64,000 nucleotides of DNA. It comes from Sulfolobales archaeon. Lineage in GTDB: Archaea; Thermoproteota; Thermoprotei_A; Sulfolobales; AG1. A program made the position numbers and the translations under genes. Shown here piece by piece: positions 1 through 57,656 of this stretch. Location of the stretch: contig JAWBYA010000002.1 of NCBI GenBank assembly GCA_038867615.1, positions 192,001-256,000 of the forward strand, written 5' to 3'. Position 1 is the first letter of the stretch. Every line of letters starts with the position of its first letter. The notes below the pieces were generated by a model that ran no database searches, was not told the DNA's origin, and saw only the letters and a program-made list of their open reading frames with translations.

Positions 1-360
1 TGTATAGTTCCCCATGATCATGATGTGGTATCCTCCAGGCTCTAGCCTAGCCTCTGATCTGCCTGGTATGCATATAGAATCCACAGGCTCCATCCTGGCT
101 ACACCGCTGCTCATAACAGTTCTATGGATCTCTGCCTTCATCTTCATGGGGCTTATCATTTCAACACCTACCAAGCAGTCCTGCCCAAACCCGTGGTTAT
201 GGATCATCATATAGACACCTATTACCCTTGGCGTTATTTTCCCATACTGGTCGTGGATCTCTATGGATGGTGCTGCAAAATATGGGATTGCTAGATATAG
301 AGACGCAACTGCTATTACCACCACAACCGCTGCTAGGATTAATAGCTCTCGCTTCTCTAT
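1..360 (-). CDS. Copper chaperone PCu(A)C family, membrane-anchored; 3' end runs off the window
   Basis: Not in the ORF track. Minus-strand frame reads (I)EKRELLILAAVVVVIAVASLYLAIP...GVYMMIHNHG...AEIHRTVMSSGVARM...LEPGGYHIMIMG, the H-x-M...HxM PCuAC pattern. Start inferred at ATA 360, 7 nt after GGTG. Confidence 0.8.
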   Translation of the reverse strand, partial: MEKRELLILAAVVVVIAVASLYLAIPYFAAPSIEIHDQYGKITPRVIGVYMMIHNHGFGQDCLVGVEMISPMKMKAEIHRTVMSSGVARMEPVDSICIPGRSEARLEPGGYHIMIMGNYT

Positions 361-443
361 AATAAACCACCATGCATAAGCCTGCTGGGAATTATATAAG
401 TGTTCTTAAAGATCTGCATATAGTTATATAGATCCTTATAGAG

Positions 444-728
444 CTACCTATTAGCAGCCTCAGCCTCCTCACCAAACACGGCTTCGTAGATATATAGTAC
501 TGCCACGGCTACTCCTCCTATGAGGGCTATTGTCAGCATGATCTCCGATGCCATGCCAGCAACCCCAACCCTGTTTATCCCTAGCAATGAGGCACAGAAT
601 GCTATGAAATCCGACAAGACCCCCCTATCTATCCCCAGCCTTATCATTATCGAGACGAGTATTGGGACTCCTACTAGGAAGAAGCTCAGCAGCGCTATGA
701 ATGGTAACGGTAGTGTTTTCCTACCCAT
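444..728 (-). CDS. Small membrane protein (2-3 TM), unknown function
   Basis: ATG 728 follows GGTGGAG; hydrophobic helices; TTATAA box near 784. Confidence 0.6.
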   Translation of the reverse strand: MGRKTLPLPFIALLSFFLVGVPILVSIMIRLGIDRGVLSDFIAFCASLLGINRVGVAGMASEIMLTIALIGGVAVAVLYIYEAVFGEEAEAANR

Positions 729-819
729 GCTCCACCTAGAATCCATATCCCTCTGGGGTAGATATGCTTGGCATCTATAACGGTTATAAGCCTCTATTTC
801 TATAAGCCCTTGGGGTCTC

Positions 820-1044
820 ATGACTCTATCAAGGATCAGGCTCTATGTGCTGGGTCTAGCGCTAACAGCCCTCATAATGTCGGCTGTTTTTGGAGCCATA
901 TTCATCTTTATCCACGAGATCAACATAACCCTCATAATAGCAGCTGTTGCTGTGATCCTTGTTGTTTGGGGTGTTAATACATACTATCTATTAAGGATCA
1001 TCGATGAAGAGGAGAGGGTTGGGGCTAGGGCTGGAGAGGACTAG
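820..1044 (+). CDS. Small two-TM membrane protein
   Basis: 74 aa with two hydrophobic stretches, directly upstream of thpR. Confidence 0.6.
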   Translation: MTLSRIRLYVLGLALTALIMSAVFGAIFIFIHEINITLIIAAVAVILVVWGVNTYYLLRIIDEEERVGARAGED

Positions 1045-1046
1045 CC

Positions 1047-1616
1047 TTGCCAAGGCTATTCGTCGCTGTCGAGATCGAGGATAGCTCTACGCTCTCAAGG
1101 ATTATTGGGGTTAGGGATAGGATCTCTGGTTTGGGTGTTGATCTAAAGCCTGTTGAGGATGAAAACATACACCTCACACTAAGGTTTCTCGGGGATGTCG
1201 AGGATTCACTGATCCCGAGTATATATAGGGCTGTTGACGAGCTCTCATCCTTCGGATCTTTTGTAATGAGGGTAAGGGGCATAGGGGCTTTTCCAAGTAC
1301 TAAGAATCCCAGGGTTGTCTGGGTTGGTGTTGCTGATGGGAGCGAGATTCTCAGGTCTATGAGGAGCGCTCTTGACAGGGGTCTCAGAGGGCTTAGGGTC
1401 CATGAGGATGAGCATGCCTTTCACCCACACATAACAATAGCCAGAGTTAGGGGTAGGTCTAACCTCGATATCCTCTCGAGATATATCGAGGAGAACATAG
1501 ATCTAGAGTTTGGAGTATCCCCGGTCACCAAGGTTGTTCTCAAGAAGAGCACACTAACCCCAAGGGGACCTATATATTCCGATCTCAGGGTAGTGGTTCT
1601 CTCGGGCCCTAGGTGA
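1047..1616 (+). CDS. thpR: RNA 2',3'-cyclic phosphodiesterase (2H family, LigT/ThpR)
   Basis: RLFVAV start, two HxT motifs (HLTLRF, HITIAR), GPIY C-terminus. Confidence 0.95.
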   Translation: MPRLFVAVEIEDSSTLSRIIGVRDRISGLGVDLKPVEDENIHLTLRFLGDVEDSLIPSIYRAVDELSSFGSFVMRVRGIGAFPSTKNPRVVWVGVADGSEILRSMRSALDRGLRGLRVHEDEHAFHPHITIARVRGRSNLDILSRYIEENIDLEFGVSPVTKVVLKKSTLTPRGPIYSDLRVVVLSGPR

Positions 1617-3032
1617 TCAGTCGCTCCGGCTTGTTTGGAGATCTATAAGGTATCTTGGGAGCGATGCTAGGAAGCATGCCAGCCATTCCTTAAAACCCTT
1701 GCCTCCCTCCCAGGTTTTAAGGATCTCTTCCGGGTCTAGGTAGATCCTGTCAACCCCTACTATATCCCTCGGTAGTTGGGATGCGATTATGATCCTCTCT
1801 ATAGCATCTATAACAGATCTATTCCTCTTCCTAACTCCGTGGAGCCTTCCATGATCGTCTATCCAGAAGCCCTCGCCCATTGATAGTTGTTTCTCTATAA
1901 ACTCTATGGAGTTATCGACATTCGCGGGAGGCCCCTCCACATGGATCGGTTCTTCTGGGTTGCATGATAGGAGTTCTAGGATTATTAGAGCCTTGTTAGA
2001 AGCCTCATCCCAGTACTCGTCTCTCCTAAGTACTGGGTAGTTCTCTGACGAGAGTATATTATATATTCTCCTCGATAGGCTCTTAACCTCCCCCCATATA
2101 TTGTCTGGAGCATTTTGCCCGAGCTTTAGCTGGATGGCAACTATACACGACCCCCTTTCCCTCTGCTTCGAGATAGCCGTTTTAAGGCGAGTCTCGCTGA
2201 TCTCGGGGGGTTCGAAGAAGAACCTCCCGGGTTTTTCTAGATATAGCTTTGAGGCTAGGATAAAGCTTGAGAGGCTCTTAATAGTAACAGCGGCTCCCGC
2301 GTTTCTCCTAACATCGACTGGGTCTGGTATTATGAGTGCTGATCCCTTGAAGAGTCTTCTAGCATCATCCACAGAGATCTTATCCTCAGCCCCTGGGGGT
2401 ATTACGACTACAGGGGGTCTCCATCTAGAGGCTCTCTCAAGAACCTCGAGGAAGCCTCCATAGCTTATTATGAGTAGCTCTGCAACATACCCCGAGAAAC
2501 CGCCAACCTTTATCTCGGCACCATATACCTCGACACCCTTCATGAACTTCTTAAGAAGCCTCACATGGTCCTTGAGATCCTCTCTAAGCATTTTCCTAAC
2601 ATATTCTGTGTGGAATGGCGTTCTATCAGCCGCTGTTAGAGCTTCTGAAGCCTTCTCGATCTTTATAGCGGGAACTATATCTGCTTCGAAACCCTCTATC
2701 CTTGCCCTGAGGTATGGGTGCTCGGCATATCTCTCTTCAACCTCTATGTCGCCTAGGGCTTTTCTGGCAAGCCTTACAAAGTTATCCCTGATCCATTTCC
2801 TCCCAAGCTCTCTCGGGATTAGGACAAAGACGTCTAGATCCAGATCCCCTGAGATAGCCGTCCCCTTAGCTATAGATCCGTAGAGATCTATTGAGAAACC
2901 GTCTCTAAAAACCTCTGAGAGTCTCTCCCTGATAAGATCATAGATCCTATGGGCTTTCCTGATCTCCTCCTCAGATGGTCTGATCCTCTCTAGAATCTCT
3001 AGAGCTATTTTCCAAGCATCACTGCTAGGCAA
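1617..3032 (-). CDS. cca: CCA-adding enzyme, class I
   Basis: GSIAKGT...DLDVF nucleotidyltransferase motif, YAEHPY, DRTPFHT, GGFSGY, DPVD. Confidence 0.97.
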   Translation of the reverse strand: MPSSDAWKIALEILERIRPSEEEIRKAHRIYDLIRERLSEVFRDGFSIDLYGSIAKGTAISGDLDLDVFVLIPRELGRKWIRDNFVRLARKALGDIEVEERYAEHPYLRARIEGFEADIVPAIKIEKASEALTAADRTPFHTEYVRKMLREDLKDHVRLLKKFMKGVEVYGAEIKVGGFSGYVAELLIISYGGFLEVLERASRWRPPVVVIPPGAEDKISVDDARRLFKGSALIIPDPVDVRRNAGAAVTIKSLSSFILASKLYLEKPGRFFFEPPEISETRLKTAISKQRERGSCIVAIQLKLGQNAPDNIWGEVKSLSRRIYNILSSENYPVLRRDEYWDEASNKALIILELLSCNPEEPIHVEGPPANVDNSIEFIEKQLSMGEGFWIDDHGRLHGVRKRNRSVIDAIERIIIASQLPRDIVGVDRIYLDPEEILKTWEGGKGFKEWLACFLASLPRYLIDLQTSRSD

Positions 3033-3188
3033 GCCGTTCTCCAGAGATCATTCCCAGGAATCGCTTATAAGTAGGAGCAAGCCTGTTAGAGTATTATCTA
3101 CTCAGTGACCAAATAGATCTATGGATTAAATAGGTAAACAAAACAGAGGAGAAATATTTGAGAGAAAAAACATATCTAGTTCTAAGCC

Positions 3189-4541
3189 TTACTTCGCAGC
3201 AACAGCCTTCCTTACCTGGAGGAATGTTAGCAGTGCGAATACGAATGCCAGCAGAGCTAGTACTATCGCAACCGCTATAGGTGTCATTAACCCGCCAACG
3301 CTGGAGTTAACACCGTCTATCTTGCCACTGAGATCCCTGCTAACAGTATCGAGCTTTGAGCTGACGCCAGCTACTGCAGATGATAGTGCGTCTCTAGCAG
3401 AGGTTATCGAGCCCCTCAGGTCGGAGGCTACTGTGTCTAGCTTGCCAGATAGTGTGTCTAGCTTGCCTGAAAGGTCTCTCTGCCCTGTTAGCAGTGTTGC
3501 TATGTCTGTCCTCATCCCTGTTATATCTGTTCTCAAGCCAGCCACCGTTGCTCTGAGATCGTCTAGAACAGCTATCCTAGTCCTTATATCTGCCACAGCA
3601 GATGATACACCTGCTATCGAGCTGTTTAGGCTAGCCACACCGCTCTTGAGATCGCTTGATATTGTGTCAAGCTTTGAGGATATATCGCTCAGAGCTGTTG
3701 TCAGTGCTGCCTGTGCTGCCTGGAACTGCTGCGTGAGGCTTGCCACCTGTGATGATAGGCTTGCCACCTGTGCTTGTAGGGCTGATAGGCTTGTGTTGAG
3801 CTGCTGGAGTGTTGACGCAACAGCACTTGTCTGGGTAGATAGTGCAGACAGCTGTGCTTGTACGGCTTGTAGCTGTGCTTGTACTGCTGCTAGCTGTGAT
3901 GATAGGTTAGCGTTCTGCTGCTGGAGCTGTGCTATCAGGCTTGCTAGCGATGTTATCTTTATATCGCCCACGTTGTTGACGCCAACAGATACTGTGACTC
4001 TAACGGATGTGCTTAGATAGTTCGGGGCACTTACCGCCAGTGTGTAGCTGCCTGGGTTGACGCTCACACTGAACCTACCGTCAGCACCTGTTGTTGCTCT
4101 CACACCTGCTTCGACGAGCTTTACAGTAGCACCCTCCACTGGGGCTCCTGTCTCGTCGATCACTCTCCCGGTTACAGAGGCTAGTGCCGCTAGCCTGAAT
4201 GTTGTCTCGGCAACAGCTGCGTCTTGCTGTGCCCTCACCCTATAGGTTCCCGGTGGGAAGTTGGGGTCTGGCGTTGTTGGTAGTGTGAAGCTCGTTGTTA
4301 CTGTACCATCGGTCCCTGCTGTCCTCTGGTCTAGGAATACTAGAGCGTTGTTAGGGTTATACACACCTATAACGACATCCCTGTTAGGGGTTGCCCCCGA
4401 TACTGTTATAACCACTGTCTCCCCACTGACATATTCTGATTTGTTTGTTGCTACTGCTAGCTGTGCCAGCGCTATTGGCACCATGCTTGCTAGGATTATA
4501 GCGGTGATCGCTATTAGAGCGGCTTTGGCAGTGCTTCTCAT
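3189..4541 (-). CDS. S-layer membrane anchor/stalk protein (SlaB-like architecture)
   Basis: Signal peptide, Ig-like and carboxypeptidase-regulatory-like beta domains, long coiled coil, C-terminal TM with basic tail; ATG 4541 after GAGGTG; coupled to the upstream surface gene. Confidence 0.7.
   Translation of the reverse strand: MRSTAKAALIAITAIILASMVPIALAQLAVATNKSEYVSGETVVITVSGATPNRDVVIGVYNPNNALVFLDQRTAGTDGTVTTSFTLPTTPDPNFPPGTYRVRAQQDAAVAETTFRLAALASVTGRVIDETGAPVEGATVKLVEAGVRATTGADGRFSVSVNPGSYTLAVSAPNYLSTSVRVTVSVGVNNVGDIKITSLASLIAQLQQQNANLSSQLAAVQAQLQAVQAQLSALSTQTSAVASTLQQLNTSLSALQAQVASLSSQVASLTQQFQAAQAALTTALSDISSKLDTISSDLKSGVASLNSSIAGVSSAVADIRTRIAVLDDLRATVAGLRTDITGMRTDIATLLTGQRDLSGKLDTLSGKLDTVASDLRGSITSARDALSSAVAGVSSKLDTVSRDLSGKIDGVNSSVGGLMTPIAVAIVLALLAFVFALLTFLQVRKAVAAK
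3432..3467. repeat. 21-bp-period tandem duplication (TGTGTCTAGCTTGCC x2) in the stalk; similar 21-bp-period pairs near 3736-3773 and 3851-3884
   Basis: Direct reading; encodes LSGKLDT-LSGKLDT heptads. Confidence 0.85.
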
Positions 4542-4552
4542 GGTAGCCACCT

Positions 4553-7459
4553 CTAGATCCTCACGGCAGCCCTATAGCTTTGCTGAGATATAGCTGAGGC
4601 CGCGATCCCGGGCGCCACAGTGCCGCCAACAACTGTTACCGTGAACTCAAGCTTATCAGCTAGAGGCGTTAGGTCTGTGAGGCTCTTGACAGCAGTTATC
4701 CTCACGGTATAGCTGCCTGGGGCTGGGAATGCGAATGAGAACGTCATACCGATCGTCTGGCCAGCCGGTATTGTTATCACCAGGGCCTGGATTGTTAGCG
4801 GTACTCCTCTAGCATCTAGCACCTGGAAGAGGAATGTTGCTGTGGTTGCCACTGGGTTGTTGTTGGTCGCGTTGAGTGAGAATAGCACTAGCCTTCCAGC
4901 AACAGGCTGTGTCACAGGAGTACCATCGGCATAGGTCATTGTAGCTGTTGGTGGGAACGATACTGGCTTCTCCAACACCTGACCAACAGTTGCCCTAGCA
5001 ACTATATCCTTAGCTCTCCCAGTTGCAGCATAGTCAGCTGGATACGAATCTGTGTATGTCACTGTTATCACATCACCGAACCTGGCGAATATGTAGCCAG
5101 ACCTGCCGAAATCTTCAGGTCTGTTGGAGACCGTGATATAGCCTATGAATGTCCCAGGTACTAAGAATAGCTCGTTCAACGTAACAGACACGCCTATAGG
5201 ATCGCTGGTTGATGTGACTCTGACAGTAACAGTCCCAATAGCGTCTGGATCAGTTACATTTATAGTTATAACATCGCCAGGCATGTAGAACGGCTTATCA
5301 AGCCTAACCACACCGTCGAAGCTTACGAAGAATACCGTGGATGTCACAATAATAGGCCCTGCAGGTGTTGATGGATCTGTGTATATTATCTCGATCCTCC
5401 CACCCAGCAATAGCTCTCTAACAGTTGGTGCGAACAAGCTCTTACTAGGCGTATCTCTAAACACGCCTGTGTTCTTATCGGTCTCAGTGGCTGTCCTAGT
5501 TATAACTGTGCCGTTCCATAGTCTAATGCTATAAGTTATAGTATCCTGGCTGTTTATGTTCCTATTCATATCAGGATCCCTTATTACCACATTAAGACTG
5601 CCATGAGGCCCTGTCCTGGTACCATCAGCAGGGCTTTCTATAGAACCAGCTGTGGCTAGAACTCTAACGCTGGCTGTAACAGTCCTAGACACCCAGCTCG
5701 AAGCACCCAGAGGAGTCTCTACTGAGTTGTTGTGCACGTAGCTAAACGTAATAACCTTCCCTGGATCAGCATATATATTGCCATCATTAGCAACCGTTAG
5801 GAGAGCTGTGAACACACCGCTGTTTGGAGCAGTCTCATTAAGCGTTACAGTCGTTGGGAAAGCAGCTCCCGAAACCTTCACAACCAGTGTGTCGAATTTC
5901 GATGTGTCGTTGTTGGCCGCTGGGTTGACAACTGTAATACTTATAGCATTTCCATATACCACATTAACAGAGGCTGTTTCGTTAACACTTATAGATACAT
6001 CAACAACCCTTATAGGTATGTCTCTGCGCTCCTTCACACCAGATGGGGATAGATACTCCACCCTCAAGAAGCCATTCTGAACCTGGTATGGCGGCTGGAA
6101 AGCAGCACTACCATTAATCAATATCACCACAGACACGGTGGGAAGCCTGGGTATCACATGCGGTGTAGTCGCGTTCAGCTGCAGATTACTCTTGAAGGCG
6201 TTTCCTACAGCATTATAGATCGTTATGTTGAGCGTCTTACCAAACACAACCTGGTTAGAGGCGTCTGTTATATAAGGATCTACTATGGTCACATTGATCG
6301 ATATGTTATAATCAGTAGTAGCTGGTATGAAATCCCTATCAACAAACACACTAACCGGGGCAGGAGGCGCCACAGTTATAGTTACATTGACAACGTCGAA
6401 GTAATTCTTAATAGCTGAAGCACCAAAGTCCGTGATCTGCTGTGCATCAATACCTGTGCCAGCACCGAATAACGCGCCAGCTAGGTCAAATGCTGGTGTT
6501 GAGTTTGCCTTAGGCACCAGTATCGATATGTTATAGCTACCCTCCTTAAGTATCTTGCCTGTGGCGAAGAATCTCCCGGTAGCATTAACACCAGTACTAT
6601 TCACAAGCATACCCAGAGTATTCACACCAGTATTCCAGAACTTCCCAGTATTTCTACCAGTCTCGATCAGGGTGAAGTTGTTCGTCAGATAGTATCCAAG
6701 GCTATCATTACCAAACACGATATATATAGTCGTATTATCCCTCAAATTCCACCATACATTGAGATCTGGTGCCGTCACATTAAATATACCCGTTAGAGGA
6801 ACATCATCAACACTAGCTCTTGAAGACACCGTGCTCGGAATCCCCTCAACACCTGATGCTGCTGTGTGTTTGAAGATCAGCTCCTTGAATACCACAGGAG
6901 TCCCAGCAAAGCTTGTGTTGAATATCTGTATAATGTCACCACTACTCATATTAAGTGCTGGGGCAACAAATGCAGGCGAGCATGTTGCGTTCCTGAAATC
7001 TGTTAGGCTTGTCGGTCCGGGGGGTGTTGCGTTATGGAAAGCCAGGTGCGTGTTGTTTATAAATACTGTTGTGCTATATACGCTTACAAGAGCGCCGTCA
7101 ACGGCTGGTCTTGCTGTTACTTCACATGTGAATCTTATAACCGTCCTATCGGGTGATAGAACTCTTAGACCTATTTTTACTGTTGGGAATGTGGTCGTAT
7201 TTACGAAATCATTGAAGGTTATGTTTACCAGCACTGTGTTGTTGAACCATATGTTGCCGTTGAATGGAGCGCCATCCCTTGATGTAGTTACTGCGGAAAC
7301 ATTATCTGCCGCTACTGTCTGGGCGCTTGCTATTAATGGTCTTCCCAGTATTGATACTAGGGGTGCTGGTGCTACTCCGAGTATTGATGCTACTATTAAT
7401 CCTAGGATTGTTGTTCCAACTATTCTTCTAACCAGATCTAATCTAGATCTTCCTGCCAC
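4553..7459 (-). CDS. Major S-layer-like glycoprotein (SlaA-like)
   Basis: Signal peptide; T/V/N-rich beta modules with a recurring D-x-D-x-N...ET-xx-NTG-x-F motif (ETGRNTGKF, ETAPNSGVF, ETDKNTGVF); many N-x-S/T sequons. Confidence 0.75.
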   Translation of the reverse strand: MAGRSRLDLVRRIVGTTILGLIVASILGVAPAPLVSILGRPLIASAQTVAADNVSAVTTSRDGAPFNGNIWFNNTVLVNITFNDFVNTTTFPTVKIGLRVLSPDRTVIRFTCEVTARPAVDGALVSVYSTTVFINNTHLAFHNATPPGPTSLTDFRNATCSPAFVAPALNMSSGDIIQIFNTSFAGTPVVFKELIFKHTAASGVEGIPSTVSSRASVDDVPLTGIFNVTAPDLNVWWNLRDNTTIYIVFGNDSLGYYLTNNFTLIETGRNTGKFWNTGVNTLGMLVNSTGVNATGRFFATGKILKEGSYNISILVPKANSTPAFDLAGALFGAGTGIDAQQITDFGASAIKNYFDVVNVTITVAPPAPVSVFVDRDFIPATTDYNISINVTIVDPYITDASNQVVFGKTLNITIYNAVGNAFKSNLQLNATTPHVIPRLPTVSVVILINGSAAFQPPYQVQNGFLRVEYLSPSGVKERRDIPIRVVDVSISVNETASVNVVYGNAISITVVNPAANNDTSKFDTLVVKVSGAAFPTTVTLNETAPNSGVFTALLTVANDGNIYADPGKVITFSYVHNNSVETPLGASSWVSRTVTASVRVLATAGSIESPADGTRTGPHGSLNVVIRDPDMNRNINSQDTITYSIRLWNGTVITRTATETDKNTGVFRDTPSKSLFAPTVRELLLGGRIEIIYTDPSTPAGPIIVTSTVFFVSFDGVVRLDKPFYMPGDVITINVTDPDAIGTVTVRVTSTSDPIGVSVTLNELFLVPGTFIGYITVSNRPEDFGRSGYIFARFGDVITVTYTDSYPADYAATGRAKDIVARATVGQVLEKPVSFPPTATMTYADGTPVTQPVAGRLVLFSLNATNNNPVATTATFLFQVLDARGVPLTIQALVITIPAGQTIGMTFSFAFPAPGSYTVRITAVKSLTDLTPLADKLEFTVTVVGGTVAPGIAASAISQQSYRAAVRI

Positions 7460-7497
7460 TATCTAGTCACCTTCGTTATTTGTATTAGGGGTAGGCG

Positions 7498-7530
7498 TAT
7501 AAAAAGGTTGTGTGCATTTGTGTGCACAAC
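7498..7530 (-). promoter_or_regulatory. TATA box (TTTTTATA) of the S-layer operon with an adjacent TTGTGTGCA direct repeat
   Basis: TATAAAAA at 7498-7505 on +; repeats at 7508-7516 and 7518-7526. Confidence 0.65.
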
Positions 7531-7728
7531 TGTATCCAGATCTTAATGTTGATCCTAGATCCTCATTCTAGTTATGGATTTGGGCTTTCATCGCCCCATT
7601 TTCGTGTTCCAGGCGGGTCTTTCTCACAATCTATCATCCAGGTTCACATGTAGATCTCTATTCCGTTTTATTGTGATATGGTTTGTTTTGATTGGTTCTT
7701 TGCTAGCCGGGTTTTCTGAGTACTCCTG

Positions 7729-23065: not shown

Positions 23066-23392
23066 CTATCCGAAGAGAGCTGAAAGTCCTTGCTCCAGCT
23101 CCTCCTCGCTGACCTCTTTCTTCTCCTCTTTCTTCTCCTCCTCTGGCTTGGCTTGCTTCTCCTGCTGTGCTTGTGGTGCCTGTGGTGCTGGGGCAGCAAC
23201 AGCAGCCGCTGGTGCAAAGACAGCTGTTTTGATAACTTCGTCGATGTTTATCTGCTTTACAGCCGCCACCAGGCTTTTCAGCCTTACCTCGTCAACCTCT
23301 ATCCCAGCTGATAATAGGATCTTTCTCACATTATCTTCGCTAATCTCTTTACCCGCCGAGTGTAGGAGGAGGGTTGCGTAGACGTACTCTAT
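23066..23392 (-). CDS. rpl12: 50S stalk protein P1/L12; inferred ATA start
   Basis: (I)[21 protein letters not shown]...EQGLSALFG; GGTGA upstream; in-frame TGA three codons before the ATA. Confidence 0.95.
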
Positions 23393-23456: not shown

Positions 23457-24116
23457 TCATATCTCTATATTGGCATGCCTCTTCCCAAGATCCTCCTCAC
23501 TAATACCCAGCCTCTCCATCAACTCAACCACAAGCCCGTCGAGGAAAACCATCGCCGTATCCTCAAAGAGTGTTCCCAGGGGCGCTAGGGGCTCGTGAAT
23601 CCCCAGGATCTGTCTCATGAAGTAATCCTCCTCACGAGCAACCTTGGTTCTGCCAGGCACTACTATTACCGCATCGCATAGCTGGGCTAGCGGTGAGTCT
23701 GGGAAAGATGTTATCCCTAGTATCAAGGCACCAACGGTTTTAGCAGCCTCAGCAGCTGTTACTATAAGCTTAGTCCTCCCCGAACCGCTTATAGCTATCA
23801 CGAGATCCCCCTTACTTATAGGCGGGACTATAGTGTCCCCAAGCACATTGACCTGGTAGCCTAGGTGTAACAGCCTCATGGCAAAGGCTCTACCAACCAA
23901 CCCGCTTCTACCAGCACCCATAACAAGGATCTTCTTCTTCTGCCTATATACATCAAGGAGTAGAGAGATAGCTCTTGAGATCTCCTCGCTCGAGATCTTC
24001 TCAGAAGCCTCAAGTATAAAGCGGGCTATATTTACCATAGATCTTCTAAATGTCTCATAATTACTCTTGCTAGATAGATCTACTTGTGATCTGGGTCTTG
24101 GTGAGGGATTATCCAC
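23457..24116 (-). CDS. hxlB: 6-phospho-3-hexuloisomerase (SIS domain)
   Basis: [29 protein letters not shown]; GTG start placed after a TTATATAA box. Confidence 0.93.
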
Positions 24117-24213
24117 AGCTTCCCTAAATAGTGATATTCTAGAATGCTTATATAATCCAGCTGCAGCCATAGATCCTTAATAGCATGAACATGTAAATTA
24201 CGAACGATGGGAT

Positions 24214-35321: not shown

Positions 35322-35538
35322 CCTTCTCCTTTCCCCTTACTATGCCGAGCTCCTCCTCCCTCAATATGGTGAGTATTCTAGCAATATTCTTCCTAGTGAT
35401 CTTTATCTTGTGAGGCTTATCAAGAGTCCCCATGGTAGCCTGGGTTCTGAGCTTGGTGAGCTCCACCACTAGATCTTGGAGCGTTCTCAGCTTCTCCTCC
35501 CTAGACATAGACCTGATCTCGTCTGGACTAAGGCTCAC
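35287..35538 (-). CDS. rpl29: 50S ribosomal protein uL29
   Basis: EIRSMS, RKNIARILT. Confidence 0.95.
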   Translation of the reverse strand: MSLSPDEIRSMSREEKLRTLQDLVVELTKLRTQATMGTLDKPHKIKITRKNIARILTILREEELGIVRGKEKGGEGEEKGKQS

Positions 35539-36233
35539 TAACCACCACCTCCAGAACCTCCAGGACTACCACCAGGCTGGGTCTCTGTACTAGCTGGACT
35601 AGCTGGCTGGGCTGGAGCAGCTGCCTGGGGTTGTTGCACGACCTCTATATAGTCAGCCGGTCTTCCAGGCCTTACTATAATCACCTCTATACCATATATA
35701 CCTGGTATTAAAAGCACGTTCGCCACAGCCCTGTCAACTAGGTAGTTGATCTGGTCACCGCTCCTATATATCTTCCCAGCCCTGAGCTTCTCAAACTTAG
35801 CCCTCTCCGAGGTGAGCTTACCACTCACAACAACCTCGGCACCGAGAGCCCCTGCAGCCATGATCCTTCTTAGTGTTATGAAAGCAGCCCTTCTAAAGTG
35901 AAAGCCCTTCTCGAGAGCCACTGCTAGTCTCGATGCCATAACCCTTGCGTTTAGCTCGGGGTTCTCAACACCCATTATTGTTATCTGTGGGTTCTCTATA
36001 CCGAAGTGCTTCTCGAAAACTGTTTGGAGCTTTTTAATAACCTCACCCCTCCTCCCGATCAGTATGGCCGGTCTATCAGCGTATATAATGATCCTTGTTC
36101 CGAGGGGTGTTTTGGTTATCTCAACACCAGCATAGCCAGCTCTAAAGAATACGGATGAGAGGTACTCGTCGACCTTTGTCCTCAGAATACCGAGCTCGAG
36201 GAAATACCTCTTCTTAGAAAACTTTGTCGAGAA
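35538..36233 (-). CDS. rps3: 30S ribosomal protein uS3; start codon non-canonical or unresolved
   Basis: Frame is open from 36248 and reads KRYFLE...VDEYL...[17 protein letters not shown]...[10 protein letters not shown] (KH domain), upstream of the ORF-track Met at 35975. Confidence 0.93.
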
Positions 36234-36234: not shown

Positions 36235-36714
36235 CTAGCCCACCTCCTTCACAATAACTTCGAAATTAGTTGTTGTAGAAAACCAAGGCGTAGCCCTGCC
36301 AAAAGCCCTTGGCATGTATCTCTTCAAATACCTACCCTTATGGGCTGCTGCATGCACTATAACAAGCTTCTCGGGATCCATACCCTGGTTCTCCGCATTA
36401 CTCCTAGCATTCCTCAGAACCTTTAGAATATATCTAGCAGCCTTGACAGGATATCTACCAACAGGTGTTTTCCACTCCTGGAAATGGGCGTTAACACCCC
36501 TCCTATGGGCTATCTGCTTCCTATGCCTTGTATAGGGTACAGGGGCTTCTTTCCTAACAACCTTTTCGAGATACGCTATGGCATCATCGAGCTTCATACC
36601 CTTTATAACCTTAGCTATCTCCACACTCTCTTTAAGAGAGATCCTAAGCTCCCTCCCAAGAGCCCTTGCAAATCTATCCCCCGGAATCTGGGGGTATGTC
36701 CAGCGGGGCGGCAT
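36235..36714 (-). CDS. rpl22: 50S ribosomal protein uL22
   Basis: [15 protein letters not shown]. Confidence 0.97.
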
Positions 36715-41267: not shown

Positions 41268-41270
41268 TAA

Positions 41271-49444: not shown

Positions 49445-49792
49445 AGACCCTATCCAATATGATCCATAGTACTGTGAGTAATATATTTATGTTGTGTGTT
49501 GCATACACCTCGATATTTATGACGATTTTTGACAACGACTGCATAACTATATCAATCCAAAAGGGCTTATCATTCACAAATCGATCTTATTCCAACAATC
49601 CCAGGGAACATGGAATCTTTAAAAGCCATTGCGTTTATCATCAACCCTAGGTATCAAAGAGAAGTTTTTCACAAATGTTTGAGAAAATGCATTTTTAACT
49701 CACTATAGATTGCGAAAGTTTTTTGTACCTAGCATTTAGCACGTGTCTTTTAAAAAGTGTTATTAAGCCCGGGTATTTCTATATAACGGTAG

Positions 49793-51031: not shown

Positions 51032-51177
51032 ATTCACTGCCCCACAACACTTAGTTCCGAGATTACTAGTATATCTCCAACGACAGAGAGGCGAGTGTTA
51101 AAAACCTCTTTATATAAACCCATATCATGTGTGGGGCAGATATGATTTGTAAATGCTGACCAACTCTAGTTTGTGTA

Positions 51178-52428: not shown

Positions 52429-52686
52429 GACCCTGGCTATACTTTTTCACATCAATTATATATTACACGCTAGATCGTTGAGATCATCTCATAAACATAT
52501 ACATAGGTTGTAATATACCACACGTTATTTACAAGCGAAAATGCGATAAGGCATGGTAGCGATTCTATGTATCATCCAGACTACAGATTGGCCGTGCTAT
52601 GAAACCTTAACCCGAACGAGGCCTCCCAAAGGAAGAAAGGAGTATTGTTTTAATTGCCAGAATTGCTATGATGCTTATGGGATGCG

Positions 52687-53469
52687 TTGTTGTATCTCGA
52701 TCTCTATTTCATTGCTGGCTATATAGCTGCTCTTGTAATGCTTATAATAACATCGTATATGGATCTTAAGACTAGAGAGATAGATCCTAGGGTCTGGATC
52801 CCCTTTGTCATAGTTGCTATAGTTATATTGATAGCTAGGTTCTCGATCAATTGGGATCCTGTTTCCACTATCTATTTACTGGTAAGTATGACACCACCCT
52901 TGATCCTTTTTGCGCTGAGCCTCTTAGGAATGATGGGTCTGGCAGACCCAATAGCCCTTGCTATAGTCTCTCTCCTCATCCCAGAGCCTCCCACAGGGCT
53001 TTTGCTCCCGCCGTCTATGGTGGTGCTTATAATAGCATCTATCCTTATGTTCTTCCTCCTAGTTATACCGATGCTCATAATCAACATACCCCGGCTAGGC
53101 CTCATCTCTAGGCACTGCGGTTCTAGATATCTAACAACAATCATAGCCCTCACAGGATTTCCTATGAGTGTTAGAGGTTTTCTAGGATCAAAGTTCCTCT
53201 ACCCATTAATATATCCATCCCTGAACGAGGGAAGAATACAGTGGATCTGTAGATGGTCCTTCGAGATAGAGGAGGATCCAAAAACACATAGAGAAGCAAT
53301 AGCCATGCTCTTAGAGAAGGGGTATGTGAGCGAGAGGGAGACTATATATGTCACGTGGGGAGTACCATACCTGGTATTCTTGCTACTAGGAGTACTGCTA
53401 TACCCACTAGCAGCAGGCTGGGTTGAGGAGCTTATCAAAAGCCTAACTATGTTGCTCCGGGCTTCGTGA
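52687..53469 (+). CDS. Prepilin/preflagellin peptidase (A24, FlaK/PibD-like)
   Basis: SYMDLKTREI and GLAD catalytic aspartates; C-terminal VTWGVPYL. Confidence 0.85.
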   Translation: MLYLDLYFIAGYIAALVMLIITSYMDLKTREIDPRVWIPFVIVAIVILIARFSINWDPVSTIYLLVSMTPPLILFALSLLGMMGLADPIALAIVSLLIPEPPTGLLLPPSMVVLIIASILMFFLLVIPMLIINIPRLGLISRHCGSRYLTTIIALTGFPMSVRGFLGSKFLYPLIYPSLNEGRIQWICRWSFEIEEDPKTHREAIAMLLEKGYVSERETIYVTWGVPYLVFLLLGVLLYPLAAGWVEELIKSLTMLLRAS

Positions 53470-53711
53470 CTGTGTGATTCTCCTCATTATGCATTATGAT
53501 TTATAGAAGTATAGATCTAAACCCTAGAATACCATTACAAAAGTACTGCCCACGATATAATCGCTATGACGACCAGGGCAGGGATAATGGGGGCTTTTCA
53601 ACAGAGCCTAGATCTTCAGCTTCGATACTTGAATAACTATAAATACATAGGTAATACGGATCCTGTGAGATACTGTTTTAGATCAAATGGGCTATTACTA
53701 AATAGGTTTTT

Positions 53712-53732
53712 CTCCAAACGATACTAAGGGGC
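53712..53732 (+). promoter_or_regulatory. ORB-like Orc1/Cdc6 binding element overlapping the cdc6 ribosome-binding site
   Basis: CTCCA-AAC-GATAC-TA-AGGGG versus ORB consensus TCCA-N3-GAAAC-N2-AGGGG (one mismatch). Confidence 0.65.
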
Positions 53733-53737
53733 TTCTC

Positions 53738-54919
53738 CTGGAAAGGATAGACGCTATATTTGAAAGGATAGCTTCCTCAAGGGTCTTTATAAATAAGGAG
53801 GTTCTTAGACCCGACTATATACCCGAGAGCCTTCCCCATAGAGAGGGGGAGATCGAGAAAGTAGCCCAAGTACTTGGCTCATCACTCCAGGGGATGAGGC
53901 CTAGCAATCTATTCATCTACGGACTAACCGGGACTGGGAAGACCGCTGTTGCTAAATTCGTGCTCAAGAGGCTCGGGATCAAGGGTAGCGAGAGGGGTGT
54001 TAGGATCTATTGGGTCTATGTCAACACAAGGATCGAGAATACTAGCTATAGGGTTTTATCAAGGATCGGTGAGCACCTCGGGGTTAGGATCCCCTTTACA
54101 GGGTTATCGACAGCTGAGGTCTATAGAAGGGTTATGAGCGCTATGGACTCGAGATCCTCTATAGTGATCATAGTTATGGATGAGATAGACTATATGGTTA
54201 AGAGAGAGGGAGACGAGATCCTCTATAGACTTACCAGAGCCAACGAAGAGCTGGGCTCTTCTAGACTAAGCATTGTTGGTATAACCAACGATATAAAGTT
54301 TGTCGAAACCCTCGACGCCAGGGTTAGGAGCAGCCTTGGCGAGGAGGAGATAATATTCCCACCATATAATGCACAGCAGCTTAGGGATATACTGATGGAG
54401 AGGGCTAGAATAGCATTCAAACCAGGCGCTGTGGGCGAGGATGTCATATCGCTCTGCGCCGCTCTAGCTGCCAGAGAGCATGGGGATGCTAGGAGAGCCC
54501 TGGATCTTCTGAGGGTTGCTGGCGAGATTGCCGACAGAGAGGGGTCTGACAAAGTGCTCGAGGATCACGTGTACAGAGCCCGTAACGAGATAGAGAGGGA
54601 CAGGGCTTCCGAGATCATCTTAACACTACCCATACATGGAAAGCTTATCCTATACTCGATAGTAAAGATTCTTGAGGAGGGTAGAGAGGCAACCACAGGA
54701 GAGATCTATCTAACCTATAGAGAGATAGCCAGAAAACAAGGGCTCGAGCCAATAACACAGAGAAGGGCGAGCGACATAATATCGGAGCTCGACATGGTTG
54801 GAATAATATCCGCCATCACTGTTAACAGGGGTAGGTATGGTAAGACAAGAATTATAAAGCTCCAGGTAAGCCCTGAAGTGATTCTAGAAGCCCTCAAGAC
54901 CGACGGGATCTCTGACTAG
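53738..54919 (+). CDS. cdc6: Orc1/Cdc6 replication initiator; inferred CTG start
   Basis: Conserved IDAIFE...VFINKEVLRPDYIPESLPHRE lies upstream of the ORF-track Met; GLTGTGKT, DEID, HGDAR, winged helix GRYGKT. Confidence 0.95.
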   Translation: MERIDAIFERIASSRVFINKEVLRPDYIPESLPHREGEIEKVAQVLGSSLQGMRPSNLFIYGLTGTGKTAVAKFVLKRLGIKGSERGVRIYWVYVNTRIENTSYRVLSRIGEHLGVRIPFTGLSTAEVYRRVMSAMDSRSSIVIIVMDEIDYMVKREGDEILYRLTRANEELGSSRLSIVGITNDIKFVETLDARVRSSLGEEEIIFPPYNAQQLRDILMERARIAFKPGAVGEDVISLCAALAAREHGDARRALDLLRVAGEIADREGSDKVLEDHVYRARNEIERDRASEIILTLPIHGKLILYSIVKILEEGREATTGEIYLTYREIARKQGLEPITQRRASDIISELDMVGIISAITVNRGRYGKTRIIKLQVSPEVILEALKTDGISD

Positions 54920-54968
54920 CCTCTCATATATATAAGGAATACGTGATAGATACAATATAGGGTAGGAC

Positions 54969-55430
54969 TTGATCCTCGTTCTCCACGCGCCAACAAGCCC
55001 CCACATGGTGGTAGAGTTTGTCAGAACAGCCTCAGTAGCGAGAATAGCAAGAGACCTGGTTATAGTTATAACAAGACCAGGAGGCCTTGCAGCACAAAGC
55101 GGTGTCCCAGAGGCGTGGAAACACGCCCATAAGAGTGGCCTAGCATTCTCAGTGCTTCCTGAGCTCTCAGACGCTATAGATCTATACAAACCCTCAGAGA
55201 TCTATATCTTTTCCAGAAACAGAGAGTGGGTTGACTTCAAAGAGGTTATGATAGGGAGCAACACAATGCTGATCTTCCCCTCAGGAGAACAGCCCCTCGG
55301 AAAAGAAGGGGTGGAAAGGGCTAGAGGAGTAGGCTTCTCGGAATTCTCCAGAGACCTGGGGCCTGTGCAGAGCCTCTCAATAGCACTATATATAGTTATG
55401 ACAAAGACATCGCTTATCAAAAACGAGTGA
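54969..55430 (+). CDS. DUF2122-like (SPOUT-like, so-called RecB-family) protein
   Basis: LVLH..S, TRPGGLAAQSGVPE, VLPELSDAI. Confidence 0.7.
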   Translation: MILVLHAPTSPHMVVEFVRTASVARIARDLVIVITRPGGLAAQSGVPEAWKHAHKSGLAFSVLPELSDAIDLYKPSEIYIFSRNREWVDFKEVMIGSNTMLIFPSGEQPLGKEGVERARGVGFSEFSRDLGPVQSLSIALYIVMTKTSLIKNE

Positions 55431-55447
55431 TGAAAGATCAGATTATG

Positions 55448-55544
55448 TGGCGGGCCCGCCGGGATTTGAACCCGGGACTTCCGCCCAGCAGATCTGGTCT
55501 ACGGGTTAAGAGCCCGCCGCTCTACCGGGCTGAGCTACGGGCCC
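55448..55544 (-). tRNA. tRNA-Lys(CTT) with 20-nt intron at 45/46 (55479-55498), CCA encoded
   Basis: GGGCCCG/CGGGCCC acceptor, GCGGG-CTCTTAA-CCCGT anticodon arm, CCGGG-TTCAAAT-CCCGG T-arm; BRE/TATA near 55570-55584. Confidence 0.95.
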
Positions 55545-55640
55545 AGCCTTAAACTATATTCCTACAGCTCTTAAAGAGCTTTTCGCTAACACCGTGCTGG
55601 TGAAAATCACGTGTTTATTTACCTCAACTCTATACCATAT

Positions 55641-56267
55641 TTAATGGTAGAGCGAGTCGGTGATGAAACGACGGTCATGTGAGAGGTGATGTGTCTTCTC
55701 TTCGCTGATGTTTTCTAGATTGACTATTCTCTTGCCTCTGGGTGTTGGTACTATTGCTATTTTTGCATCTGTAAAGTATATGTTGAGCTCTTTACCTTGG
55801 AAGAGCCTGTCGAGGAATATAGCCAACGCCGCTACCTCTGAGTGGGGTTGTGTTCCTATCGATATATTATGATCAACAATATCATATACCTCTCTCGGAA
55901 CCTTTTCAGAGCCCACTATGACCAGGATATCCCTGTGCCTTTTCACAAGGTCTATCACATTGTCTACTGGTAATCCATACATTGTTAGATGCACCACACA
56001 CCCGCCCTTCTCTCTCCATTCCTTTATAACTCCTCTCCACTCCCTTGTGTAGCTTACTTCGAACCCATCACCGCCCCATCTCGCCACAACCCTTGAGAGG
56101 GATTCGATCAGGCTTTTATCCTCCTCCCCCGAGTATATTATCCCTGCCGCCCCGAATGCCCTAGCTACTAAGCCCACATGGGTTGATATCCTCTTATCCC
56201 TTTCTCTCCTATGCCCAAGCCTTAGCACAACCACCCTGTATCCTAGATCTTTTCTCAACACAACCAT
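55641..56267 (-). CDS. trm56: tRNA (cytidine56-2'-O)-methyltransferase aTrm56
   Basis: [40 protein letters not shown]. Confidence 0.96.
55660..55708 (+). ncRNA. Box C/D methylation guide sRNA
   Basis: C GTGATGA, 12-nt guide, D' GTGA, C' GTGATGT, 12-nt guide, D CTGA, then a T-run. Confidence 0.8.
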
Positions 56268-56438
56268 AGATCCACCTTGGGCTAGCTAGCCCACATTATC
56301 ATGGTTTTTAGAGTATAAAAGAGGTTCGAACCCAACAACCACCAATAGAGCGGACAGATATATCGATAACCACCCGCCAGAATCGCTACCTCAGTATCAA
56401 TAAGTCTGGTAGTGAAGTAGGTATATGGGTAGTGGTGT

Positions 56439-56852
56439 ATGGAGTTCGGAGACGATGAGTATATAGATGTCCACGAGGGTGGAGAACTCTCATGGATGCA
56501 GAGGATCTCTAACATGGTTAAGAGCTATAACCACAGAATAGAAGCCCATGGAGATGCTGCAAGAATAGTTGCTGGAGACTCTGTGTTCGATATAGGGCCT
56601 ATGGGGAGCAAGATCTGTGTGCAAGCCCACCTAGAACTCCCAATAGGGAGCGAGACAGGAATACAGATAGATGAGCTTATCGAGAGAGTGAGGAGAGTAT
56701 ATAGAGCGCTGTATGCAATAAAAGGTCCTTTCAACTATGTTCTAGATGATTCGTTATCGGAGCTGGGGTTGGTGCATATAGTGAAATGCTATGAAAAGCC
56801 GGGGGATCTCGAGAAAGATCTCGAAGAGATCTTGAAATCCTTAAGCCTTTGA
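56439..56852 (+). CDS. Hypothetical protein
   Basis: 137 aa ORF with GTGGTG SD and host-like codon style. Confidence 0.65.
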   Translation: MEFGDDEYIDVHEGGELSWMQRISNMVKSYNHRIEAHGDAARIVAGDSVFDIGPMGSKICVQAHLELPIGSETGIQIDELIERVRRVYRALYAIKGPFNYVLDDSLSELGLVHIVKCYEKPGDLEKDLEEILKSLSL

Positions 56853-56979
56853 GCACTCATAATGCTAAGGATAGATGCTGAGCTTCTTGCCATAGCTAGA
56901 ACGAGGGTTAGGATTATCTATAATGGGGAAAGATCTATCACGATCCTTATGAACAGATCTCCATTTACATACCACACAC

Positions 56980-57033
56980 TCTGGTAGAAATACTCCTCAA
57001 GCAGTACTCAAGACCTTAAGGCTTACTCATCAT
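56980..57033 (-). ncRNA. Possible second box C/D sRNA
   Basis: ATGATGA...TTGA...TTGAGGA...CAGA over 54 nt; D box imperfect. Confidence 0.3.
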
Positions 57034-57152
57034 AAAACGAGTATCTAGTAGTGGAGAGCTAGTGAAAATAGCTGTAAAATCGTGAAACTGAAACAACTTG
57101 CTACGGCTTTAAAGAGTGCCTTTACCCCAAAATGATCTAGTCCTAGGGATTT

Positions 57153-57656
57153 CTAGAGTCTCATGAGCACCTCTATAACAATATCCCAGATCTTATCACC
57201 AACGTGATGTATATTTTTAACAGCCTTCCCCTTCCTAATACTCGTAACCTCTTGGGAGCTCATGAGAGCTCTTCCAACAGCTATGAAAGCTCGCTTCTGA
57301 GGCTCTCTAACCCCTACAAGATCCCCTTGCTTGAATTCAGAAGTCTCTATAATCCCTGGCGCCATCACATCTGCCCCATTAAGTATCCTTGGAACTGCTC
57401 CTTGGTCTATGACTACATAGGGTACTGGGCATAGGTTCTTGTTGAGGAGATGTATTGCCGGTATTCTTTCCTTGCCCTCAAGTTCTATTACTAGCGGTGT
57501 TTTGTCAGCTATATATATTTTAGCATTCTCCCCATAGACCACTATACCCTCCTCAGGCTCTTCTACAGAGCATTTGAAAACCTCTCTAGAGATCTTAACA
57601 AGCTCCCTGAGATCCTTTCTAGATATATGGTGATAATGATACCTCATAGGCATCAC
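57153..57656 (-). CDS. Pre-PUA + PUA RNA-binding protein (MCT-1/Tma20-like)
   Basis: VVIDQGAV..ILNGADVMAPGI, GKAVKNIHHVGD. Confidence 0.9.
   Translation of the reverse strand: MMPMRYHYHHISRKDLRELVKISREVFKCSVEEPEEGIVVYGENAKIYIADKTPLVIELEGKERIPAIHLLNKNLCPVPYVVIDQGAVPRILNGADVMAPGIIETSEFKQGDLVGVREPQKRAFIAVGRALMSSQEVTSIRKGKAVKNIHHVGDKIWDIVIEVLMRL

Follow-up and report, generated by a model that had tools for sequence, protein, structure and literature searches.

Ortholog or Pfam evidence supports a near-cognate start codon, differing from AUG at one position, for about 28 genes of this Sulfolobales archaeon, roughly 3-4% of those tested. They comprise the genes for ribosomal stalk protein L12, the copper chaperone PCuAC, aIF2-alpha, Rrp4 and about 24 others, and open mostly with CTG or ATA and less often with ATC, ATT or ACG. 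An earlier note on the window (the whole 64,000-nucleotide stretch analysed here) had proposed relaxed, Shine-Dalgarno (SD)-dictated start-codon selection on the basis of four genes, and the genome comparison supports loose start-codon identity well beyond these four. As the explanation of the genes without an NTG start we favor, with a probability of about 0.7, near-cognate start codons that are placed by the SD sequence and drift between species.

According to this explanation, a few percent of the genes in this archaeon and its family would be translated from near-cognate codons replacing AUG, GUG and UUG, mainly CUG and AUA and more rarely AUC, AUU and ACG. In most such genes an SD with a GGTG core 5-8 nt upstream would set the codon in the P site, where the normal initiator tRNA-Met (anticodon CAU) presumably pairs with it despite a single mismatch; initiation at these codons would insert methionine, with the SD compensating for the mismatch. 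Because the SD would fix the position, selection on start-codon identity would be weak and the codon would drift among ATG, TTG, GTG, CTG, ATA, ATC and ACG between sister species. Two genes, for ribosomal protein S3 and a LeuA/CimA-like protein, fall outside this explanation.

Putative near-cognate starts across the genome and its relatives

The window belongs to genome G000, a 28-contig draft that forms a subclade with G002 and G003; G001, G004 and G005 make up the rest of the genus (n = 6). G000 was compared with parts of G010 (662 kb), G017 and G026, counting orthologs whose conserved N-terminus extends at least 8 codons upstream of the first NTG and whose partner has an NTG start. Start codons were read by eye from aligned codon tables; transferring the partners' start codons to G000 without gaps proved too noisy and was set aside, with only about one third falling on NTG. 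As SD we took a sequence able to pair with the 3' end of the 16S rRNA, 5-8 nt before the start, and candidates were scored for matches of at least 4 nt. The genomes compared share kinship, and counts across them are not independent.

The ortholog test identified 15 of 465 genes against G010, 8 of 196 against G017 and 5 of 174 against G026, with S3 found additionally among nine G010 pairs in which NTG is missing from both partners. By eye, the codon aligned exactly with the G010 start was CTG, ATA or ATT in 9 of 17 genes, compared to a background of 11% (binomial p=2.5e-5). The candidate genes reach their first NTG 23-101 codons in, whereas Pfam domains start 5-27 residues past the proposed starts and would be truncated by initiation at that NTG. 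Such boundaries were seen for NTP_transferase, Epimerase, NTPase_1, TauE, S1/EIF_2_alpha, ECR1_N_2, Metallophos, Diphthami_syn_2, TrmO_N, DHDPS, ABC_tran and Ald_Xan_dh_C. An ortholog-free test considered ORFs of at least 150 codons whose first 25 codons contain no NTG, taking the share of codons positioned 5-8 nt after GGTG. Near-cognates were enriched at this position both in G000 (19/427 versus 49/3137 for other codons, p=4e-4) and in G010 (7/85 versus 5/623, p=1e-4).

What the sequences show directly is which codons occur, where they lie relative to Met1 of the orthologs, where in-frame stops precede them, which SD motifs are present and how far all this is conserved across species. The near-cognate stands at the orthologs' start position in L12, aIF2-alpha, an epimerase, an NTP-transferase and a diphthamide-synthase-like gene, within one codon of it in PCuAC and within two in Rrp4. 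For aIF2-alpha, an NCBI record 98% identical (269 aa) begins MVLKRK and was thus called from the CTG, while 6 of 8 database sequences from the nearest matches are shortened at the N-terminus. This CTG is present in all six genus genomes, and 24 others have ATG, TTG or GTG. Rrp4, the epimerase, the NTP-transferase and the diphthamide-synthase-like gene carry CTG in G000, G002 and G003; in G001, G004 and G005, ATG or TTG occupies the site or lies at most two codons away wherever the gene was found. Rrp4 carries ATC in G006 and G008.

The dictating role given to the SD stands only in part: 16 of 21 candidates have an SD match of at least 4 nt and five do not, and the resulting 76% is not significantly above the 55% among 296 genes with unambiguous NTG starts. 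These 296 starts (157 ATG, 83 TTG and 56 GTG) bear out the impression that TTG and GTG are common. Relaxed starts are, however, not peculiar to this lineage as had been supposed. L12 carries ATA, ATC or ACG in 18 of 29 relatives from at least five families of the order, although 3 of the 6 ACG cases in genus g2 may actually start at a GTG that lies in frame within the SD. The L12 case of Staphylothermus marinus is published (PMC2678158), and the outside-family genomes G017 and G026 show a few plausible CTG or ACG starts, with two SD-positioned near-cognates each. The excess of G000 over these two related genomes is modest (13/370 versus 3/370, p=0.02) and not significant against G026 alone; on these small numbers, the near-cognate rate looks higher than in the two outside families.

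Start regions of the genes in the window

L12/P1, PCuAC, S3 and Cdc6 lie where the earlier note had placed them and, from the preceding in-frame stop to the conserved N-terminus, contain no ATG, GTG or TTG (Table 1). A good SD 6-7 nt upstream had been claimed for all four; it is present in L12, PCuAC and S3, but Cdc6 is preceded only by AAGGGG. Four unrelated errors had been thought unlikely, and the non-NTG arrangement indeed recurs in all six genus genomes for L12 and S3 and in all three subclade genomes for PCuAC and Cdc6. Because the same arrangement is found in other species, and for L12 and S3 also in independent metagenome assemblies that agree, these four genes are not errors.

Table 1. 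Coordinates of the start regions and neighboring features, counted from the first base of the window
Feature	Position	Strand	Remark
PCuAC copper-chaperone gene, proposed start ATA	358..360	-	gene leaves the window at base 1; Pfam PCuAC confirmed
GGTG core of PCuAC SD	368..371	-	7 nt before ATA
L12/P1 ribosomal stalk protein gene	23066..23392	-	starts at ATA 23390-23392, where orthologs have Met1 (MEYVYA...)
SD AGGTGA of L12	23399..23404	-	6 nt (ATCAGT) before ATA
Ribosomal protein S3 gene	35538..36233	-	drawn from TTC 36231-36233; alternative first codon AAG 36222-36224
SD GGAGGTG of S3, inside L22 end	36241..36247	-	7 nt before TTC
Ribosomal protein L22 gene	36235..36714	-	stop TAG at 36235-36237
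TATA-box-like TAAATA	53699..53704	+	about 27 nt before codon 53726; motif and distance kept in genus
Cdc6/Orc1 gene	53726..54919	+	drawn from AAG 53726-53728, ATG in relatives
PUA-domain protein gene	57153..57656	-	GTG start; outside the phenomenon

In L12, ortholog alignment places the ATA at Met1, with other species likewise lacking NTG. The ATA is followed by GAG TAC GTC, and an in-frame TGA inside the SD lies two codons upstream. The first NTG, a GTG at 23329, would cost 21 residues. A metagenome contig of run X5 is identical across this start, and a variant contig of run X9 spans it with no difference at the ATA or the SD among the differences listed. The region upstream is AT-rich and promoter-like, which does not suit termination-reinitiation coupling.

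For PCuAC, the first NTG is a GTG at 324, within the membrane helix. G000, G002 and G003 share the ATA, and TTG in G001 and GTG in G005 lie within one codon of the site. In G002 an in-frame TGA three codons upstream leaves the ATA as the sole option.

The Cdc6 gene does not support the CTG start assigned to it. Its ORF opens at 53702, and the CTG at 53738-53740 aligns with a conserved Leu/Met; four codons upstream, codon 53726 is ATG in G001, G004, G005 and genus g3 and AAG in G000, G002 and G003. The CTG is probably a leucine codon, and the ancestral start was probably the ATG of the relatives. The first NTG is an ATG at 53894, 64 codons in. The conserved TATA-like box points to an mRNA with no leader or a very short one. 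A leaderless mRNA would be expected to carry AUG, GUG or UUG at its 5' end, about 25 nt after the box; in the subclade, codon 53726 is AAG.

Alternative explanations and the two exceptions

The non-NTG codons could instead be gene-specific weak starts, each selectively maintained for tuning or autoregulating its own gene, like the AUU of bacterial infC. The real targets would then be translation-related genes, namely L12, S3, aIF2-alpha, Rrp4, RIO kinase, TrmO and the diphthamide-synthase-like gene. We consider this possible but doubtful. Several candidates do belong to the translation apparatus, L12 is non-NTG in 18/29 relatives, aIF2-alpha keeps its CTG and S3 lacks NTG throughout the genus (S3 also in eight metagenome variants), and infC-type autoregulation offers a precedent in the passages of PMC2830850 considered here. 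However, most cases are young and spread over unrelated functions (epimerase, NTP-transferase, TauE, ABC ATPase, DHDPS and PCuAC), and CTG in three genomes with ATG or TTG in the next three looks like drift more than regulation.

The two genes kept apart from the near-cognate set have TTC (S3) and GCT (LeuA/CimA-like) at the SD-set position, neither of them near-cognate. In S3, ATG, GTG and TTG are absent until 35975, 91 codons in. Its TTC, one nucleotide after the L22 stop, occupies the place of ATG or ATA in genus g2 (ATA in three of six genomes), and the alternative AAG aligns with a Met of genus g3. Across the junction, contigs from the independent runs X5 and X8 show no difference. A search of five genomes from genera g2 and g3 for the LeuA-like gene (E<=1e-100) gave no match, which leaves its start with no outgroup.

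A strong SD alone might fix the start in this genus, with P-site checking of codon against anticodon dispensable enough for non-cognate TTC and GCT to open essential genes; we regard this as unlikely. Both genes rank among the 21 candidates with the longest SD matches: the S3 motif GGAGGTG, at 7 nt, is equalled only by Rrp4, and the LeuA-like GAGGTG, at 6 nt, is as long as those of L12 and RIO. From the SD to TTC TC or GCT TC the sequence is nearly invariant among the genus genomes, with one G/A or G/T change, while neighboring synonymous sites vary.

For the same two genes, a ribosome ending at the upstream TAG might reinitiate, or the TAG might be recoded, through a +1 shift in S3 and read-through in the LeuA-like gene. 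Both ORFs are directly preceded by GTG GGC TAG, within a block GGTGG(G/A)CTAG...CTTC kept across the genus; the S3 ORF opens one nucleotide after the L22 stop, the LeuA-like ORF begins directly after the TAG in frame with GTG GTG GGC TAG, and neither gene offers a near-cognate at the SD-set position. We nevertheless judge such events quite improbable. Recoding would require different events in the two genes, and L22 and S3 belong to different ribosomal subunits, so that a fusion would join proteins of both. Genus g2, with the same stop-plus-one-nucleotide layout, has an ordinary ATG or ATA in this place, which indicates that S3 is initiated separately there. A prfB-type programmed +1 frameshift at GGC TAG C was rejected on this ground and since GGC to GCU would probably re-pair poorly. 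Reinitiation would suit the stop proximity of S3, of the LeuA-like gene and of Rrp4, whose CTG directly follows TAA, but to our knowledge reinitiation is restricted to AUG, GUG or UUG, from which TTC, GCT and CTG differ. A special signal common to the two genes, GGTGGGCTAG, was also considered and rejected: the decamer has 11 occurrences, mostly off gene starts, and the heptamer GGGCTAG is common here (787 copies). The resemblance between the two genes may be chance.

Sequencing or assembly errors, pseudogenes or proteins truly beginning at the first downstream NTG are a largely refuted and very improbable explanation: although the genome is a draft and automatic aIF2-alpha calls in relatives often start downstream, the same codons appear in three to six separately assembled genomes and in contigs of independent runs, S3, L12 and aIF2-alpha are essential genes, and downstream starts would remove Pfam domain cores.

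Initiation machinery and known systems

Archaeal initiation combines eukaryote-like aIF1, aIF1A and aIF2 with a bacterial-like SD. Within the genus the anti-SD has the sequence GGATCACCTCC, and the 16S 3' end is ordinary in G002, G001 and G010, where it was inspected (it is not assembled in G000). The initiator tRNA is canonical. aIF1 lies outside the ribosomal protein operon, as the earlier note had observed, elsewhere on the same contig (C2:139663-139881). A link of the relaxed starts to aIF1 and an MCT-1-like protein, raised there as speculation, was not borne out: aIF1 retains the conserved KIRLEKRKFGKEVTIIEG and LATGGT..GRIELQGDHR blocks intact, and the PUA protein, its domain confirmed, shows nothing beyond an ordinary PUA domain. 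The family's aIF1 departs only by a one-residue gap, a Q/Y-to-M change within one helix and an acidic tail at the C-terminus. No aIF1 match was found in G004 and G005, which are 81% and 93% complete.

The closest known case is L12ae of S. marinus (Smar_1096), described in 2009 as lacking a valid start codon, with ATC proposed (PMC2678158). It concerns the same gene in the same archaeal order, with a near-cognate at Met1 as for the ATA of the window. In the parts of that paper considered, the case is one gene in one genome, whereas L12 here is affected across the order, together with about 28 genes in one genome. Non-canonical starts in bacteria include infC (AUU/AUA), pcnB (AUU), repA (CUG) and Deinococcus deserti genes found by N-terminal proteomics, in the passages of PMC2830850 considered. 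As described there, ATT, ATA, ATC and CTG likewise open otherwise normal SD genes that ordinary gene finders miss, in a handful of genes per genome, some with proven autoregulation. The present cases differ in amounting to a few percent of genes, in an archaeon with aIF1/aIF1A/aIF2 machinery, and in being known from sequence alone.

CUG and ACG are among the better near-cognates in eukaryotes. There eIF1 polices near-cognate initiation, and archaeal aIF1 discriminates against non-AUG codons, according to the passages considered (PMC6237735, PMC8211752). The factor family is the same and the near-cognate set similar; unlike in eukaryotes, there is no scanning, the SD sets the position, and aIF1 is present and looks intact, with no sign of weakening. 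A review gives AUG, GUG and UUG as archaeal start codons in all mRNA types, its passages considered here containing no case of AUA, CUG or another non-NTG start (PMC7531240). Most genes here fit that view as given in these passages, and a conserved minority departs from it. We found no published genome-wide account of non-NTG starts in archaea, only S. marinus L12ae, although supplementary start-codon tables might hold some.

Gene callers of the Prodigal type accept only ATG, GTG and TTG, so that a few percent of genes in this group, including aIF2-alpha, S3 and L12, would be shortened or dropped. The near-cognate starts suggest that the group checks start codons loosely. Since aIF2-alpha, a subunit of the factor delivering initiator tRNA, itself starts at CUG genus-wide, a feedback on initiation stringency is conceivable, if speculative. 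CUG, AUA and ACG starts fixed in essential genes would provide a natural system for studying how far the SD replaces codon recognition and how the stringency of initiation is set.

Start regions of four genes in the window

Gene starts in the window's genome (G000; 2.22 Mb in 28 contigs, the window being C2:192001-256000) were examined with the help of 30 relatives, five from its own genus g1 (G001-G005), eight from genera g2 and g3 of the same family f1 and 17 from twelve other families of the order. Among named relatives, those closest in S3 identity are a Desulfurococcaceae archaeon (98%) and several MAGs of Desulfurococcales/Sulfolobales from hot springs. The earlier note had reported four genes, encoding L12, PCuAC, S3 and Cdc6, without an NTG start (ATG, GTG or TTG); direct reading and the ortholog, Pfam and ortholog-free tests described below showed the pattern to be real and wider than stated. 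Sequencing errors do not account for it, since every one of the four arrangements reappears in genomes that were assembled separately, and contigs of two independent metagenome runs (X5 and X8), from studies other than the window's likely source, are identical to the window at the S3 junction.

The L12/P1 start region reads TAA TAG GTG A|ATC AGT ATA GAG TAC GTC, in which the Shine-Dalgarno (SD) sequence AGGTGA, itself containing an in-frame TGA, is followed after 6 nt by ATA, and starting at the next NTG would cost 21 residues. All six g1 genomes carry ATA or ATC here, and the Met1-aligned codon of the 29 relatives with a match is ATA (8), ATC (4), ACG (6) or ATG (11). A GGTG-core SD precedes this codon in the non-ATG relatives; in three of the six with ACG, an in-frame GTG inside the SD is a possible alternative start. 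The X5 contig is identical to the window at the L12 start, and among the differences listed for a variant strain in a third run (X9) there was none at the ATA or the SD. PCuAC (minus strand) has GGTG, 7 nt and then ATA GAG AAG, and its first NTG falls within a membrane helix. Its ATA was found in G000, G002 and G003, which form the window's subclade, and in G002 it is the only option because of an in-frame TGA three codons upstream.

The S3 start region (minus strand) reads TGA AGG AGG TGG GCT AGC TTC TCG ACA AAG TTT TCT AAG AAG, where the L22 stop TAG overlaps GCT AGC and 91 codons pass without an NTG. All six g1 genomes and eight further metagenome variants (80-100% identity) likewise lack any NTG. 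The block GGAGGTGG(G/A)CTAGCTTCTC shows a single G/A change across these sequences, and neighboring synonymous sites are variable. Across most of the order S3 begins ATG GTN AAY, 1-8 nt past the L22 stop, with TTG or GTG in a few genomes and ATA at the start codon in three of six g2 genomes. In position, TTC lies where this ATG or ATA would be, one nt past the stop and 7 nt downstream of GGTG, a spacing shared with L12 and PCuAC. By protein alignment, an invariant AAG three codons past TTC pairs with the Met of genus g3. The first codon may thus be TTC or AAG, with predicted N-termini FSTKFSKK or KFSKK, respectively.

The claim of an SD 6-7 nt upstream stands for L12, PCuAC and S3; genome-wide, most but not all of the candidate starts may be SD-led. 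For Cdc6 the window's clade does lack an NTG under either start reading, but the CTG proposed as the start aligns with CTG, TTG or ATG of relatives in a conserved 'H-L/M-D/E/N' stretch and is therefore probably an internal residue. An in-frame ATG lies four codons upstream of it in G001, G004, G005 and genus g3; there, G000, G002 and G003 have AAG (at 53726 in the window), and genus g2 has GTG at -3. A TAAATA motif kept across g1 lies about 27 nt before this AAG/ATG codon and suggests a leaderless or short-leader mRNA. The mini-ORF directly before the Cdc6 frame reads MGYC* in G002 and G003 and is not found in G001, G004 and G005.

Coordinates of the features discussed, in the window or in the genome and contig named
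Feature	Location	Position	Strand	Remark
L12/P1 gene	window	23066-23392	-	stands alone
Upstream neighbor of L12	window	23457-24176		not ribosomal-protein-like by translation
L10-like match	G000, C1	242888-243061		on another contig than L12
Mini-ORF before Cdc6	window	53687-53701	+	ATG GGC TAT TAC TAA, in frame
Cdc6 ORF	window	frame from 53702; CTG at 53738	+	first ATG 64 codons in
tRNA-Lys(CTT) gene	window	55448-55544	-	97 nt
aIF1 gene	G000, C2	139663-139881
LeuA/CimA-like gene (L282)	G000, C8	9098-10591	-	outside the window; named from its FDTTLRDGEQ N-terminus alone
aIF2-alpha (L148)	G003, C12	37647-38559		overlapping pieces, residues 1-240 and 203-268
Run of N inside an ORF	G010, C4	~129336-130449	-	masked or unassembled

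Genome-wide counts of candidate near-cognate starts

For the ortholog test, stop-to-stop ORFs were taken from 662 kb of G010 (genus g2) and from 400 kb of each of two outside-family genomes, G017 and G026, and compared with those of G000 by blastp; antisense shadow ORFs were discarded, and genes were counted when a conserved N-terminus extended at least 8 codons upstream of the first NTG and the partner had an NTG there. Against G010, 15/465 genes of G000 and 10/465 of G010 were counted, with nine further pairs, including S3, in which both lacked an NTG. The corresponding counts were 8/196 and 1/196 against G017, and 5/174 and 2/174 against G026, where the excess alone was not significant. Pooling the two outside families gave 13/370 versus 3/370 (p=0.02), although the genomes are related and the counts not independent. 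The lineage-specific excess is suggestive only. Among the G017 hits of the ortholog-free test, one CTG start looks real, with N-terminus ARIAVIKFPGTNCD, which points to such starts outside family f1 as well. We take the protein concerned to resemble PurQ.

Start codons in G000 were assigned by eye from aligned codon tables. CTG was assigned to Rrp4, aIF2-alpha, an NTP-transferase, a metallophosphoesterase, an epimerase, Lhr helicase, an Asn-synthase-like protein and a small Zn-ribbon-like protein (named by its CxxC motif, with no Pfam match); ATA to L12, PCuAC, RIO kinase, TauE, a MarR-like protein and two unnamed proteins; ATT to NTPase_1; ATC to a MoxR ATPase; and ACG to one unnamed protein. 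The codon exactly aligned with the G010 partner's start was CTG, ATA or ATT in 9 of 17 pairs (p=2.5e-5). Cases in G010 itself have ACG, ATT, ATA and CTG starts; by genus, G000 favors CTG and ATA, and G010 favors ACG and ATT. Pfam domains set in 5-27 residues past the proposed starts and match from profile positions 1-14 onward; first-NTG starts would remove nucleotide-binding loops or entire N-terminal domains.

The ortholog-free test examined the first 12 codons of ORFs of at least 150 codons lacking an NTG in codons 1-25. A position 5-8 nt after GGTG was held by 19/427 near-cognates (CTG, ATA, ATT, ATC, ACG) versus 49/3137 other codons in G000 (p=4e-4) and by 7/85 versus 5/623 in G010 (p=1e-4); the figures were 2/29 versus 1/211 in G017 and 2/50 versus 13/802 in G026. 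The G000 list added 12 genes, with Pfam domain support in seven of the ten scanned. SD matches of at least 4 nt were present in 16/21 candidate genes compared with 55% of 296 NTG genes, an excess that is suggestive, the difference not being significant.

Start turnover between sister species

In all six g1 genomes the codon before VLKRK in aIF2-alpha is CTG, and an in-frame TAA lies 6-7 codons upstream of it; the remaining 24 genomes have ATG, TTG or GTG. Read from CTG, the predicted N-terminus is MVLKRKQIPDVGELVIATVK. An NCBI protein 98% identical to aIF2-alpha (269 aa) starts MVLKRK and was therefore called from CTG; of seven other sequences taken among the nearest hits, six begin 9-95 residues further downstream. 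In G003, a relative of 96-98% identity, the aIF2-alpha match falls into two overlapping pieces, which points to a frameshift or a misassembly in this record. In Rrp4, compared at 22 of 29 loci, the candidate start codon, aligned to within two codons, is CTG in G000, G002 and G003, TTG in G001 and G004, ATG in G005 and ATC in G006 and G008. The epimerase, NTP-transferase and a diphthamide-synthase-like gene have CTG in G000, G002 and G003; wherever they were found in G001, G004 and G005, this codon is ATG or TTG. An ABC ATPase was orthologous in G003 only, with the same ATA.

S3 and the LeuA/CimA-like gene are misfits, as neither carries a near-cognate where its SD would place the start. The latter reads GAG GTG GTG GGC TAG|GCT TCG AGA AGA GTA TAT ATA TTC GAT, so that GTG GTG GGC TAG precedes the ORF in frame; its first NTG lies 65 codons in, and neither NTG nor near-cognate occurs ahead of the conserved RVYIFDTTL. 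G005 is alone within g1 in having a GTG, which lies at the Val codon of RVYIF. The block GGTGGT(G/T)GGCTAGGCTTC is kept in all six g1 genomes, and the sequence further upstream has diverged.

Initiation machinery and published precedent

Archaeal start codons are reviewed as AUG, GUG and UUG (PMC7531240), and aIF1 reportedly selects against codons other than AUG (PMC6237735, PMC8211752). A link to aIF1 or an MCT-1-like protein, as the earlier note had speculated, is unsupported: G000 and 28 of the 30 relatives have aIF1, its conserved blocks are intact, and both genomes that gave no match are incomplete. The initiator tRNA of G000 looks canonical, with A1:U72, an anticodon stem containing three G-C pairs and the anticodon CAT, which we take to be the initiator identity features. 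In G002 and G001 the 3' end of the 16S rRNA is GGATCACCTCC, and overall the machinery looks ordinary. A genome-wide scan run without an intron search detected 34 tRNAs; the tRNA-Lys(CTT) gene probably contains an intron, given its length.

The non-NTG start of L12, which recurs across the order, is already in print: the Staphylothermus marinus L12ae gene was reported without a valid start, and ATC was proposed (PMC2678158). In the main texts consulted, including PMC2830850 and PMC3353972, only this note matches the G000 pattern.

The best reading of these sequence comparisons is that family f1 would use fixed near-cognate initiation, mostly SD-led and at a percent-level rate, with the identity of the start codon drifting between species. 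Gene annotation would be affected, as six of the eight aIF2-alpha database sequences compared begin downstream of the CTG.
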